Below are positions 2,633 to 41,293 of a DNA stretch of 64,000 nucleotides, piece by piece. Location: NCBI GenBank assembly GCA_043739185.1, contig JAYUEN010000387.1, positions 15,297-79,296 on the forward strand, read 5' to 3'. Each line of letters starts with the position of its first letter. The first letter of the stretch is position 1. Source of the DNA: Bdellovibrionales bacterium (lineage in GTDB: Bacteria; Bdellovibrionota; Bdellovibrionia; Bdellovibrionales; JAMPXM01). The notes under the pieces were generated by a model that saw only the letters and a list, made by a program, of their open reading frames with translations, had not been told where the DNA came from and did no database searches. Position numbers and translations under genes: made by a program.

Positions 2633-4090
2633 CTATTTAAACAATAATTGGCAAGAATTAGAAACAATAAATGAAGTCCTCGACCAAGGCATTTTTAATG
2701 GAGTCTTAGGTGCGAATTTGTGCTCCCAAAACTCAAGCATTGCTTTGCCATTTTGCTCCATTATTGCATCAACCGGAATAGGTCCCATATCAACTAAATA
2801 AGCAGTGCCGTCTCGAACCACAATATTGTCAGGAGCAATATCCAGTTTTATCAAACTCAAATTTGCCATCGCCAAAGCTTTGGAATGCAAATCAAGCACG
2901 GACTTCGCAACTCCTGCATCTAAATGGTCATGGGTTTTTATATAAGCCTCAAGGCTTGGTCCCTTAATGTATTCGCTTAATATCCATTGTCCCTCGGGGT
3001 CAAAAGCCAATATCTCAGGGCTATCAATTTGAAATTTCATCTTTGCCCAATGTTGTACGTTGACAATTCTTTTATTGGTTTCGCGACCCTTTTTATTGCG
3101 TGCCATTTTGATCGCAATTTCAACGCCATTTTTTTCAATTACAAATACATCGGCTTCAAGTCCACTGCCTAAATATTTTTTAACCGGAAAAATCTCCTCG
3201 CCGATTTTGACCGTCATTAAATTCTTGTGACGCTTTAATTTGACGACCATTGCCTTTGTATTTTCAAAGAGGCCGATGGATTTCAACATAGAAATTGCCT
3301 TTCGAGAGGTCCAATTTTTCAATCCAGACAAGGGTGTCGCATGATTATTGTCGAGAGTGTCGAGATACAATCCGCGGCCTAAAATGACCTCAATGCTACT
3401 CGGAGCAATTAGTTTTGAAAGTTCGCTCAATTTGAATTGAATTTCTGGTGAAGTTCGATCGGCGAAATATAAGTCAAGATTATGGTGAATATAGCTTCGC
3501 GCTTTTGAGGATGAAATTCCAGCAGGTCCTTCGGGCATAAGGTGCACATTTCGAGCCGCCAAATTTCTTGGGAGATGATAATTTTCGGCATGATCGCGGG
3601 GAACGACCAGAGTCTCATCAGGGTGAATGAGAAAAAGTAAATAAGGAAGCGAACTTTCGGCCACATCTTGGCCAACAACGAGGTCTATTTGTACGTTCGG
3701 ATTGATTTCGCGAATTTTTTTGTAGAAGGCATTAAATGGATTGAATCCCTGAGATAGGGCGGCCCATTCGCCATCGAGAGGATAAGTCAAATTGGGATGC
3801 CGATTTAGTGCGGCGTCGATCAGTTGAACTCTTACCTCAAATGGTTGTGGCTTTTTATGAACGGGGCTACCAGTTGGCAAAATGATCACTAAATCTGCGC
3901 CAGAGGCCTTTAAAGAAATTTCAGCAGTTTCAATATGGCCAAGACTTACGGGATCGTAAGTGCCTGGCATAATAAGAATTTTTTTTGCAGATTTAATTTT
4001 CTCATAATCAAGAGGTACGCCAAAGCTCAATGAACTAAATCCGAGAAAACATACGAGTAGGCTAGCTAAAAAAAATCCGAATGACTTCAT
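2633..4090 (-). CDS. Signal-peptide protein fusing a NadD-like nucleotidyltransferase domain to an atypical protein-kinase-like domain
   Basis: Signal peptide MKSFGFFLASLLVCFLGFSSLSFG. Adenylyltransferase motifs GTYDPVSLGH, PVHK, ISSSKAR. Kinase motifs LGSGLEADVF, IAIK, LDIAPDNIVV, LVDMG. Ends SCQLLFK. Confidence 0.75.
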   Translation of the reverse strand: MKSFGFFLASLLVCFLGFSSLSFGVPLDYEKIKSAKKILIMPGTYDPVSLGHIETAEISLKASGADLVIILPTGSPVHKKPQPFEVRVQLIDAALNRHPNLTYPLDGEWAALSQGFNPFNAFYKKIREINPNVQIDLVVGQDVAESSLPYLLFLIHPDETLVVPRDHAENYHLPRNLAARNVHLMPEGPAGISSSKARSYIHHNLDLYFADRTSPEIQFKLSELSKLIAPSSIEVILGRGLYLDTLDNNHATPLSGLKNWTSRKAISMLKSIGLFENTKAMVVKLKRHKNLMTVKIGEEIFPVKKYLGSGLEADVFVIEKNGVEIAIKMARNKKGRETNKRIVNVQHWAKMKFQIDSPEILAFDPEGQWILSEYIKGPSLEAYIKTHDHLDAGVAKSVLDLHSKALAMANLSLIKLDIAPDNIVVRDGTAYLVDMGPIPVDAIMEQNGKAMLEFWEHKFAPKTPLKMPWSRTSFIVSNSCQLLFK

Positions 4091-4363
4091 ATTAAAATAA
4101 CCTTAATAAAGGGTCCAAGATTAGCTTAAACACATGGGCGCTAAGCTCGCAAATTGCCTATGGGTCTTAAACTAAGCGAATTCGCTGCCAAATCAGGGAC
4201 TTAATCAATTCAAGCTGAGCTGCATTTCATGAAATTTTTATCTTAAGCGAGCCGAAATCGGGCAGGTCTTTTGTCCGGTCCAAAAAGCTAAATCAGTATT
4301 CGGAAATGTTCTCAAAACGCCGAATAGATTCAGCGATCAAAGTGAAAAAATTTTGCTAAATCG

Positions 4364-38877: not shown

Positions 38878-39012
38878 ATGAAAAAGCTATTTACAATTTT
38901 TGGCAATATCACCCTTATTCTGTCAGGATTTTAGACAGCATTTGCACCCGAAAAATATTTGAGAATGGGTGGCCTTGATGGGCAATCGATTGAGAATGTA
39001 TTTAAATTTTAA
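38878..39012 (+). pseudogene. Interrupted signal-peptide stub (remnant of a secreted protein gene)
   Basis: SD GAGGTG then MKKLFTIFGNITLILSGF*TAFA-PEKYLRMGG...*, with TAG at 38932 inside an otherwise good AxA signal peptide. Confidence 0.4.
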
Positions 39013-41293
39013 ACTTTTTGCACTTCGTCTTCTGATCGGAGTTTTTTGTATGCTTTTCAAAAGTATGGCCTTTGCGACCATAACAATTCACGAAATTAAA
39101 GCCAATGAAGATATACAAACTTATTTAAATAGAACTGCGGGTAACGTTGATGCCACTTCCTTTCGCCAAATCTTAGGCGCTGCTTCAGATTTTAAAGAAG
39201 GCGATGAGAGTATTGGTCTGAGTGCTCATGATGAGGTTTCGCGCCAAAGAGCAAGACAGTTGCTCGCAAACACGAAGGTCCTTGCATTAGTTGAAAGTTC
39301 ATACCTCGGCTCAGATTCGCAAGAGCAAATGATTCGCTCTTCAATAGACACCCCAATTTATAAATCGTTGCGGGATAAAAGCGTAGGCGAACTCAAAAGC
39401 TTTTTGCTGGGGGCTTCTGAGTTCGAGATCAAGAAAATCATGCCGGGACTTCACAGTGATGTAATTGCAGCGCTTGTAAAACTTATGTCAAATGAAGAGC
39501 TCATACAAATTGGACAGAAAGTTTTCAATCCATTGCCAAATAGTTCGATCGGAAAAAAAGGATATTTAAGTGCACGGCTTCAACCCAACTCCTCGACCGA
39601 TCATCCTGGTGACATTCGCTGGCAGGTTTTCAATGGCTGGGCATTTGGCGTTGGGGACCTCATGTTGGGAAGCAATCCGGCTTCAAGTACCCCTGAAATT
39701 GTTCATCGGACGGAATTGCTTTTAAAAGACCTCGTCGAAAGCTTTGGCCTACGAGACGTACTTCCTTGGACAGTGCTTTCACATATAGATATTCAAAATA
39801 CTGTTGAGCAAAAAGATCCGGGCAGTACGCGATTGTGGTTTCAAAGTATTGCTGGGAACGATGAGACCAATGCTGTTTTTGGAACTTCAGCCGCCAGCTT
39901 GATGGAGTATGCAAGAAAGCGAAAGGGCCAAAATTTTGGTTTGTACCTCGAGGCAGGACAAGGATCGGAAGTTACCAACGGGCACAGCAATGGACTTGAT
40001 ATGGGCACTCTCGAATCACGAAAGTACGGCTTGGCGCGGGCTTTAAAACACGCCCAAGGTGGAGAAAAATCTTGGATGGTAGTTAACGACGTCGCAGGAT
40101 TTATCGGGCCTGAAGTCTTTCGTAGCAAAGAGCAGCTGGTTCGAGTGGCGCTCGAAGATACGGTAATGGGAAAATTGCATGGCCTGACAATGGGGCTAGA
40201 TATTTGCTCGACCTTTCATATGCCAATTACTCCAAAGGATTTACGCTGGGCAATTGATCACATCATGCCGGCCAATCCGGCCTATTTGATGGCGTTGCCA
40301 ACGCACAATGATCCCATGCTGAGTTACAACACGACGCCCTTTCAAGAGCATTTAAGAATTCGCCAGAAGTTTAAATACAAATATGATGAAAGAATGAAAG
40401 CGTTTTTTATTAGATTGGGAATAATCGATATTGGCGGAGAGCCAACGGAGCACTTTGGTGATCCAATTTGGGTTTACTATCAATATCAAAAAACTCGTGG
40501 TGTAACTCAGAGTTATTCTGAATTTAAAAAACGGGCAGAAATTGAAATGCAAGAAGTGCAAAGACGTGGAGTGGCTTTATCGATTGGCTTTGGCAAAAAT
40601 GTTTGGGATTTTAATGCAGACCTTGATCGTTCACTTGAAGCTTTAGATGCAGCTGCCAGAGCCAGCATTCATGCCCCGTTAAATGCTGATTTCTTAACGA
40701 AATACTTTCCGAACTCCTTGCAATTGAATACTCAATCTGAAAATCGCGATCAATATTTGTCGAAGCCAATTTCGGGTGAGACTTTGTCCGAATTTTCGAA
40801 GGCGCAACTCTTGAAATTAAATATCGGATCAAGTGATGTCATTCTGGTCATTTCGGATGGACTCAATTCAGATTCACTGATGGATGCAGGACATTTAGAG
40901 CCCTATCTCCAAGAGTTGAAATTGCAATTGCAGAATCGCGGGCTCAAAATTCATCCTGATCCGATAATTGTTCACAATGCCAGAGTGCGAGTTTCCTATC
41001 GCATTGGTGAAGAACTATTTGCTCATTTCACTCAGACGGATCAAATCAAGTCTGTGATCAATATTGTCGGGGAGCGTCCCGGTAACGGGCACAATACTTA
41101 TTCGGCATATCTTGCAACGGCAAGCGTGAGTGCATGGAAAGAAAAAAATCATGACCATGATCGCACCGAACTCGTATCTGGAATTTCAGATACATCTCTT
41201 GAGCCAAGACAAGCGGCTCAAGACAGTGTCGAGAAGATATTACTCAAAACTCAATTCATTCTCGGTAAGCAATGCATCGCTTTGTTCAACTGA
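38996..41293 (+). CDS. eutBC: Fused ethanolamine ammonia-lyase heavy + light chain (EutB-EutC) with signal peptide
   Basis: EutB motifs SARLQPN, FGVGD, FQSIAG, EAGQGS, YGLAR, GFIGPE, MGKLHG. EutC motifs VISDGL, ARV, IVGERPG. N-terminus MYLNFKLFALRLLIGVFCMLFKSMAFA. Confidence 0.88.
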   Translation: MYLNFKLFALRLLIGVFCMLFKSMAFATITIHEIKANEDIQTYLNRTAGNVDATSFRQILGAASDFKEGDESIGLSAHDEVSRQRARQLLANTKVLALVESSYLGSDSQEQMIRSSIDTPIYKSLRDKSVGELKSFLLGASEFEIKKIMPGLHSDVIAALVKLMSNEELIQIGQKVFNPLPNSSIGKKGYLSARLQPNSSTDHPGDIRWQVFNGWAFGVGDLMLGSNPASSTPEIVHRTELLLKDLVESFGLRDVLPWTVLSHIDIQNTVEQKDPGSTRLWFQSIAGNDETNAVFGTSAASLMEYARKRKGQNFGLYLEAGQGSEVTNGHSNGLDMGTLESRKYGLARALKHAQGGEKSWMVVNDVAGFIGPEVFRSKEQLVRVALEDTVMGKLHGLTMGLDICSTFHMPITPKDLRWAIDHIMPANPAYLMALPTHNDPMLSYNTTPFQEHLRIRQKFKYKYDERMKAFFIRLGIIDIGGEPTEHFGDPIWVYYQYQKTRGVTQSYSEFKKRAEIEMQEVQRRGVALSIGFGKNVWDFNADLDRSLEALDAAARASIHAPLNADFLTKYFPNSLQLNTQSENRDQYLSKPISGETLSEFSKAQLLKLNIGSSDVILVISDGLNSDSLMDAGHLEPYLQELKLQLQNRGLKIHPDPIIVHNARVRVSYRIGEELFAHFTQTDQIKSVINIVGERPGNGHNTYSAYLATASVSAWKEKNHDHDRTELVSGISDTSLEPRQAAQDSVEKILLKTQFILGKQCIALFN

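Follow-up and report, generated by a model that had tools for sequence, protein, structure and literature searches.

The pentapeptide C-x-x-[LI]-F was found at one end of the chain in four exported enzymes encoded in a stretch of 64,000 nucleotides (nt) from a Bdellovibrionales bacterium (JAMPXM01), namely positions 15,297–79,296 of the forward strand of contig JAYUEN010000387.1 (C387; assembly GCA_043739185.1). This whole stretch is called the window here, and positions refer to it unless a contig is named. A scan of the genome, together with a comparison with relatives, confirmed at the level of sequence that the motif is a real, conserved and portable terminal tag with a lone cysteine, able to stand at either chain end. 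The assembly (G000) comprises 4.85 Mb in 540 contigs, with 41.8% G+C. Genes were called with a crude procedure of our own, based on codon-usage scores with overlaps resolved, which gave 4375 proteins covering 85% of the DNA; signal peptides were called heuristically, by eye and with a simple rule (basic N-terminal stretch, hydrophobic core, AxA-type site). The whole-genome scan refers to the window's own genome only, and five other genomes were sampled at 400 kb each. The curated set of carriers contains 32 N-terminal and 19 C-terminal examples, 51 in total, or about 1% of the proteome.

The four carriers of the window, and the peptides reported for them in an earlier note on this DNA, were all recovered by translation, each motif at the position and on the strand given below. 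Pfam confirmed that they belong to unrelated families, and the three signal-peptide features named above were recognised in all four. A NadD-like nucleotidyltransferase with a kinase-like domain (NadD-kinase; 2633–4090, minus strand; Pfam CTP_transf_like and a weak Pkinase match, NCBIfam nucleotidyltransferase and Bud32-like kinase) ends in ...SNS-CQLLF-K-stop (motif 2639–2653). A DNA topoisomerase IB (TopIB; 15280–16392, minus strand; Pfam Topoisom_I and Top1B_N_bact) has the signal peptide MRSFLFLSLLLVFSGQVSFA, with ...VSFA followed by SPVA-CLSLF (motif 16306–16320). A cysteine peptidase of the PepC/bleomycin-hydrolase type (20676–22238, plus strand; Pfam Peptidase_C1_2) shows ...SMAFA and then GGDQ-CESIF (motif 20778–20792). 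Finally, a single-chain EutB-EutC ethanolamine ammonia-lyase (EutBC; 38996–41293, plus strand; Pfam EutB and EutC on one chain, in agreement with NCBIfam), with a Sec-type signal peptide, ends in ...GKQ-CIALF-N-stop (motif 41273–41287). Judging from orthologue N-termini, the likely starts are Met94 of a long open reading frame (ORF) for TopIB (16392), Met22 of the listed ORF for PepC (20676) and, for EutBC, position 38996, downstream of the start of the longest ORF. Since a twin-arginine motif is missing from the signal peptide of EutBC, this enzyme probably leaves the cytoplasm in an unfolded state and lacking its cofactor.

Orthologues of each of the four window proteins have retained the tag, down to 35% identity, whereas its flanks and linkers vary. 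For NadD-kinase, four of four homologues (35–61% identity) end in C-x-x-[LV]-F-x(0-3); in the alignment Cys480 and Phe484 are invariant, and the preceding linker varies in sequence and, by 11 residues, in length. The seven PepC homologues (42–72% identity) all show a signal peptide, four residues and then C-x-x-[L/M/A]-F. In more distant exported PepC homologues, the early cysteine is kept with other hydrophobic pairs (CSEIY, CKKLL and others), and matches at the level of the order carry CKALF and CSEVF. Behind the signal peptide, exported TopIBs show GQLS-CESLF in a same-genus orthologue, SVS-CEYLF and ASQ-CSELF in two genomes of another family, and GPRT-CHKVF in a genome of another order. 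The only EutBC orthologue, from the same genus and 69% identical, ends in ...GR-CETLF-K-stop; a related-locus search of genome contigs with EutBC gave no relatives. The last 54 nt of the EutBC gene (41240–41293), tag codons included, overlap the 3' end of a convergent MFS gene (41240–42520, minus strand). However, this overlap does not explain the tag, because the tag is kept in the orthologue.

A comparison with cytoplasmic homologues, which the earlier note had asked for, showed that signal peptide and tag are both missing from around ten cytoplasmic TopIBs in relatives and from the stand-alone cytoplasmic homologues of EutB. A parallel case is that of the S1/P1 nucleases. A tagged member encoded elsewhere in the genome (contig C8, 1882–2928) bears a 45-residue extension ending in CEAMF-stop, and two orthologues and one paralogue from the same genus carry C-terminal extensions of about 45 residues ending in CEGLF-stop, CESMFGG-stop or CKSAFN-stop, whereas seven untagged homologues stop at the domain end, without extension. 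No swap between N-tagged and C-tagged orthologues was seen within this nuclease family, only tagged proteins with the extension versus untagged ones. Thus, conservation in related Bdellovibrionota holds for the four window proteins and for the tagged nuclease. The description of the motif as lying in appendages outside the catalytic domains also stands, given the variable NadD-kinase linker, the nuclease extension and an AlphaFold2 (AF2) model of NadD-kinase. In that model, built from a five-sequence alignment, the nucleotidyltransferase domain is confident and the tail 434–485, including the tag, has a confidence score (pLDDT) below 50; the apparent floppiness of this tail lends weak support, because the alignment is shallow, and agrees with the variable linker and the nuclease extension.

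Across the 4375 proteins, C..[LI]F occurs 182 times versus 136 expected from composition, and since this total excess equals the number of terminal copies, internal copies are at background. The form C-x-x-[LI]-F-x-stop was observed 12 times versus 0.44 expected (Poisson P ~7e-14), and the motif lies 0–2 residues from the C-terminus in 18 proteins versus 1.3 expected (Poisson P ~6e-15); five scrambled or shifted C-terminal patterns gave 0–1 matches each. At the other end, xx[LI]F follows 26 of the 400 cysteines located at mature positions +2 to +8 behind a signal-peptidase-I-like site, with 3.6 expected (P ~9e-15). Within 15 residues past the hydrophobic region, 25 matches to the motif were counted versus 1–9 for eight permuted motifs, and register-shifted N-terminal versions gave 1–5. 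The motif is not enriched inside the hydrophobic region of signal peptides, nor are C..[MV]F and other variants enriched in this genome. The proteome-wide enrichment anticipated by the earlier note was therefore found at both ends of the chain, over scrambled and shifted patterns.

Two trivial sources of such an excess were rejected. Paralogy is not the cause, as the 51 carriers fall into 47 groups without mutual BLAST similarity. A DNA repeat or a terminator at gene ends was also discarded: the codons for the Cys, Leu and Phe of the tag vary and the DNA downstream (3') of the carriers is unrelated, which argues for selection on the peptide and not on a DNA element.

Both forms of the tag have a regular anatomy. 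The N-terminal one consists of a signal peptide with an AxA-type site, 2–5 residues and then C-[E/R/K/x]-[D/S/A]-L-F, with the tag Cys between mature positions +3 and +6 in 28 of 31 N-tagged proteins, most commonly at +4. In the C-terminal one, a linker that is often rich in Ser, Asn and Gly precedes [S/R]-C-x-x-[LI]-F-[K/R/N]-stop, and among the 19 C-tagged proteins the Phe is at position -2 in 12, at -1 in five and at -3 in two. Signal peptides are present in all the complete carriers except one or two. The 19 C-terminal carriers include a pair of pilin-like paralogues with 8 Cys, likely false positives because their last Cys probably closes a disulfide loop. A search for a hub protein with several tags found no protein with at least two credible motifs in this genome.

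The cysteine of the tag is typically alone. For 21 of 32 N-tagged proteins the mature chain contains no other Cys, and in the rest the additional residues are either the catalytic Cys of papain-type enzymes or close Cys pairs. In the NadD-kinase family it is the only mature Cys in four of five members, and all eight members of the PepC family have two mature Cys, that of the tag and the catalytic one. Exported proteins of this genome show a preference for even numbers of cysteines (240, 172 and 126 proteins with 0, 2 and 4 Cys, versus 128, 83 and 37 with 1, 3 and 5), and DsbA-like proteins with CPHC and CPYC are encoded; therefore, the periplasm seems to be oxidising. A conserved lone thiol would be unusual in a compartment of this kind. 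What was found, an unpaired Cys on an exported chain in a probably oxidising compartment, is the situation required of cargo tethered by disulfides.

The tag is widespread in the order, at very uneven density. It was seen in families f1, f5, f6 and f11 and in another order of the phylum, its density across the sampled genomes being graded, not present or absent, with lineage-specific flavours. The 400-kb sample of G050 (family f5) showed three C-terminal tags, all of the form C-x-G-L-F-stop, and two N-terminal ones, and that of G028, from another genus of the family to which the window's bacterium belongs, two N-terminal tags in tandem, both CRDLF. The samples of G037 (family f4) and G039 (family f6) contained none. 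At most one doubtful tag was detected in the sample of G087 (family f11), a complete Bdellovibrio-like genome of 3.77 Mb with 49.8% G+C. In this last genome, a 176-residue signal-peptide protein (L161–L180, minus strand) has HN-CQEFL after the signal peptide and ends in K-CQRVF-stop; the two sites may represent a tag at both ends or an intramolecular Cys pair.

No Pfam family could be assigned to more than half of the carriers. The recognisable ones include proteins that need ATP (the nucleotidyltransferase-kinase, a second Bud32-like kinase-like protein, a circularly permuted ATP-grasp and a Clp-type AAA+ ATPase), proteins dependent on other cytoplasmic cofactors (a GNAT acetyltransferase, EutBC and a phytochelatin-synthase-like peptidase) and proteins acting on DNA or phospholipid (TopIB, the S1/P1 nuclease and a PLD protein). 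Other hydrolases are PepC, another papain-like peptidase, an M48 peptidase, a calcineurin-like phosphoesterase and a polysaccharide lyase, and the remaining assigned carriers are a beta-helix protein, an FG-GAP protein, a WD40-like propeller and a SnoaL-like protein. Several of these families need ATP, acetyl-CoA, adenosylcobalamin, glutathione or DNA, which are not expected in a periplasm. The earlier remark that the tag sits on enzymes that normally work in the cytoplasm, made on the four window proteins, thus gains an ATP-grasp, an AAA+, a GNAT, a second kinase-like protein, a metallophosphatase, a phytochelatin-synthase-like peptidase, a PLD protein and an S1/P1 nuclease from the wider set. 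A Walker-A regular expression was considered for counting exported ATPases and was not used, as it proved too unspecific.

Among the orphans, a fifth tagged gene of contig C387 lies at 81279–82232, around 2 kb past the window end, and encodes a 317-residue protein with QTLE-CRNLF behind the signal peptide. In addition, an orphan N-tagged family was found in two genera (contigs C117, 2298–3407, and C50, 17259–18080, and locus L091 of G028, 8411–10557), tagged every time and twice adjoining another tagged gene. Its conserved ...Y-x-Y... and ...S-C-A-[SG]-[SA]... motifs suggest that it is possibly a Cys enzyme.

A lone-Cys pentapeptide at either chain end matches no described sorting signal in the profile libraries and literature searched. 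Neither Pfam nor NCBIfam has a model that covers the tag, ten carriers scanned against NCBIfam at E<=1 matched no sorting signal, and a literature search on the motif, on Bdellovibrio secretion and sorting signals and on conserved cysteines returned nothing relevant. Identity with a lipobox, a MYXO-CTERM-type signal or a CaaX box was rejected, as their defining features were not found. The lipobox, L-[AS]-[GA]-C, is processed by Lgt, LspA and Lnt and, like the tag, puts an invariant functional Cys close behind the signal peptide of many unrelated exported proteins. However, it requires [LVI]-[ASTVI]-[GAS] at -3 to -1, whereas the residue at -1 of the tag Cys is M, S, E, R, T, I, Q, D or others, a normal AxA signal-peptidase-I site lies 2–5 residues upstream of that Cys, and the constraint falls after it (x-x-L-F). 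Moreover, the lipobox is exclusively N-terminal, and 19 carriers have the tag 0–2 residues from the C-terminus. The true lipoproteins of this genome use other boxes, such as ...QFGC and ...FQNC; many probable lipoproteins (that at 14506–15123 of the window, minus strand, and the products of other genes) show ...F-Q-N-C-S..., with Asn at -1, and not L-[AS]-[GA]-C.

The tripartite Cys-type C-terminal signals, MYXO-CTERM and its relatives, resemble the tag in that an invariant-Cys signature near the C-terminus is present on dozens of unrelated exported proteins of one lineage, a feature shared here by the C-terminal carriers only. In those signals (Haft; myxosortase work), a transmembrane helix and an Arg cluster come after the motif (bioRxiv 10.1101/2023.06.07.544157). 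By contrast, the tag has neither membrane helix nor Arg cluster, only 0–2 residues follow the Leu-Phe, two thirds of the carriers are N-terminal and no NCBIfam model matches. The CaaX box, which directs prenylation and Rce1 cleavage, is likewise a portable short C-terminal motif with a Cys followed by aliphatic or aromatic residues, but its Cys is exactly fourth from the end and its bearers are cytosolic, whereas the tag Cys occupies the fifth to seventh position from the end, in proteins with signal peptides, and the tag also has an N-terminal version. GlyGly-CTERM with rhombosortase and the C-terminal domain of the type IX secretion system are also terminal tags, which single out some periplasmic intermediates for additional sorting or for a step at the surface. 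They are C-terminal only and consist of a membrane helix or a folded domain of around 80 residues with known dedicated enzymes, and nothing comparable was detected here. A single unpaired terminal Cys that makes a covalent, reducible link to a partner is known from the IgM/IgA tailpiece (with J chain and ERp44) and from AB toxins, whose interchain disulfide breaks in the reducing cytoplasm of the target. These would be the closest functional analogy to the mechanism that we prefer, although there is no homology and they are not position-flexible five-residue tags common to around 50 proteins.

The explanation that we favour, and to which we would give an even chance, is that the tag is a lineage-specific, thiol-based docking or sorting mark, which Sec-exported proteins present at a free end, on a flexible appendage, and which is used in a step after Sec. 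The Leu-Phe would be recognised by a common partner, perhaps a carrier, a translocator, a protein anchored in the membrane or another of the tagged proteins, to which the lone Cys would be joined covalently, probably by a disulfide and probably in a reversible manner. The tagged proteins would thereby be sorted, held or co-delivered once Sec has exported them. The composition of the cargo suggests the prey cell as the destination, where the disulfide would be released in the reducing cytoplasm. A more specific proposal, which we consider doubtful, is that the tag gives the cargo list of a two-step delivery route of Bdellovibrionota, in which enzymes dependent on cytoplasmic cofactors would be exported unfolded by Sec, coupled through the Cys to a carrier or translocator in the oxidising periplasm, taken out of the predator and released by reduction in the prey cytoplasm, with its ATP, acetyl-CoA, B12, glutathione and DNA. 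The idea of effector targeting put forward in the earlier note is plausible and is strengthened by the cargo list, the mechanism being inferred. Regarding the tag for a second export step that it proposed, the portability, the presence at either end, the location on an appendage of signal-peptide proteins and the unpaired Cys all held, and the co-distributed machinery that should accompany it was not found.

The search for such machinery did reveal some regularities around tagged genes. TIGR02147-type helix-turn-helix regulators were the only family recurring near them in the neighbourhood search, with four paralogues at C286:4469–5278, C308:251–1054, C355:1042–1854 and C332:172001–172810, each divergent from a cassette that in three of the four consists of an untagged Gly-rich secreted protein and an N-tagged protein. 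They were rejected as machinery, being cytoplasmic regulators that point to regulation. Two of them end in ...C-L-N-L-D-L-F-W-x-x-x and the others in ...C-M-C-I-D-F-F-E-V-V and ...M-S-L-N-Y-F-R-Y, which may be coincidence. A tagged FG-GAP lipoprotein was discarded as a conserved anchor or hub, since it is absent even from genomes of the same genus. The MBOAT-family membrane acyltransferase of the window (32184–33602, minus strand; Pfam MBOAT) was considered as an enzyme acylating the tag Cys and was rejected for lack of co-occurrence: no homologue at E<=1e-20 was found in the tag-bearing G050, and one was found in G039, whose sample has no tags. The acylation model based on it was dropped because of the tag-bearing genome without a homologue, and this protein is thus placed outside the tag system.

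Several observations weigh against a sorting role. No partner or machinery came out of the neighbourhoods, the MBOAT protein, the FG-GAP lipoprotein or the search for a multi-tag hub. The cargo includes ordinary extracytoplasmic enzymes (the polysaccharide lyase, the beta-helix protein, the M48 peptidase and the S1/P1 nuclease), so that the link with cytoplasmic cofactors is a tendency and not a rule. The density is uneven, as two genomes gave no tags in their 400-kb samples and the Bdellovibrio-like genome gave at most one, and both the gene calls and the signal-peptide calls come from our own heuristics. In addition, the tag Cys could equally be lipidated, bind a metal or dimerise its carriers.

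Dimerisation is the basis of one alternative, in which the tag acts as a lock between tags: Leu-Phe would pack on Leu-Phe and Cys bond to Cys, covalently joining co-secreted partners, or forming homodimers, outside the cytoplasm without any separate receptor or sorting step. Five pairs of adjacent tagged genes were counted versus 0.5–0.7 expected (P ~0.001). One of them, in an operon on contig C117, encodes a 657-residue protein ending in SCETLFSGGQ-stop followed by a 369-residue protein with CVDLF shortly after the signal peptide; the pair recurs, doubly tagged, in an independent metagenome contig, and the tagged paralogues of G028 lie in tandem, all of which favours the lock. However, around 40 of the 51 tagged genes are solitary, and a third homologue of the 369-residue protein stands without a tagged neighbour in another contig. 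Dimerising also brings no obvious gain to monomeric enzymes such as TopIB, and free cross-linking among 50 different proteins would be indiscriminate, so we regard this alternative as unlikely. We consider distinctly unlikely that the lone Cys is S-acylated or otherwise lipidated by a periplasm-facing enzyme, so that the cargo is anchored in the outer membrane or in vesicles and passed on to prey. This would be similar in logic to the lipobox, to MYXO-CTERM and to Hedgehog and ghrelin acylation near the mature N-terminus, and an unpaired Cys beside a hydrophobic Leu-Phe at an accessible chain end is within reach of a membrane enzyme. Furthermore, the known bacterial Cys-containing sorting signals are all thought to end in lipid attachment (PMC11980579; bioRxiv 10.1101/2023.06.07.544157), which counts for this possibility. 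Nevertheless, no lipobox precedes the tag Cys, the C-terminal tag has neither a membrane helix nor an Arg cluster behind it, none of the sorting-signal models of NCBIfam and Pfam gave a match, and the MBOAT protein, the only acyltransferase candidate examined, does not co-occur with the tag.

A third role for the Cys would be a latency or redox switch, in which it keeps the enzymes inactive, or retained in the predator periplasm, through a mixed disulfide with a Dsb-type oxidoreductase or as an active-site cap until reduction at the destination activates them, without any part in routing. A DsbA-type groove would be expected to trap a lone Cys next to hydrophobic residues, as in DsbA–substrate complexes, and the members of the PepC family have, apart from the tag Cys, just the catalytic one. 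On the other hand, the chemistry of many carriers does not depend on Cys, the unrelated folds and active sites of the carriers make a common active-site cap unlikely, and the conserved Leu-Phe points to a shared binder and not to 47 different intramolecular contacts; this switch seems to us highly improbable. As for an artefact of chance, composition or annotation, through the hydrophobicity of signal peptides, lipoprotein cysteines, spurious ORFs or a DNA repeat, its probability is close to negligible. The motif is indeed short, with only three fixed positions, the gene and signal-peptide calls are heuristic and two of the 19 C-terminal carriers are the pilin-like proteins mentioned above. 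However, chance and composition are effectively refuted by the positional and scrambled controls: P is ~1e-13 to 1e-14 at each end, shifted and scrambled patterns stay at background and there is no enrichment inside the hydrophobic region. The variation of codons and flanking DNA and the conservation of the tag in orthologues from other genomes and independent assemblies also speak against an artefact.

Sorting through a terminal thiol would bear on how Bdellovibrio-like predators route enzymes beyond their own periplasm to substrates in the prey cytoplasm. If the two-step route is true, it would explain how predators dwelling in the periplasm pass enzymes across the prey inner membrane, and it would provide a sequence rule for listing predator effectors. 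A five-residue tag readable from sequence would yield a catalogue of candidate effectors made up mostly of orphans and of enzymes unfit for a periplasm, and the tag itself offers a handle for pull-downs, Cys-trapping and reporter fusions. The design would also be new, as the bacterial sorting signals known from chain ends are either lipoboxes at the N-terminus or, at the C-terminus, tripartite or folded domains. Even if the tag is only a disulfide lock, bacteria would have in it a new and general means of making covalent assemblies outside the cytoplasm, and its compactness could make it useful where secretion is engineered in predatory bacteria.

Regarding the other genes of the window, its ordinary periplasmic enzymes have no motif, as had been described earlier: this applies to a trypsin-like protein (1162–2013), an amidohydrolase (55771–57231) and an S1/P1 nuclease (45773–46852, minus strand) that ends at the domain boundary. 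An exported hydrolase (50309–51628, minus strand), with the N-terminus ...KANENPNDFDFI-CKKIM, shows a near match only and was not counted as a carrier. In the region 31158–33602 (minus strand), the MBOAT acyltransferase, conserved at 79–82% identity in the genus and not linked to the tag, is followed by a 337-residue membrane-anchored protein of no family. Finally, an operon at 23777–30554 (plus strand) encodes a 990-residue protein with an N-terminal membrane helix, a 97-residue lipoprotein and a 1172-residue signal-peptide protein, none of them with a Pfam or NCBIfam family above threshold.

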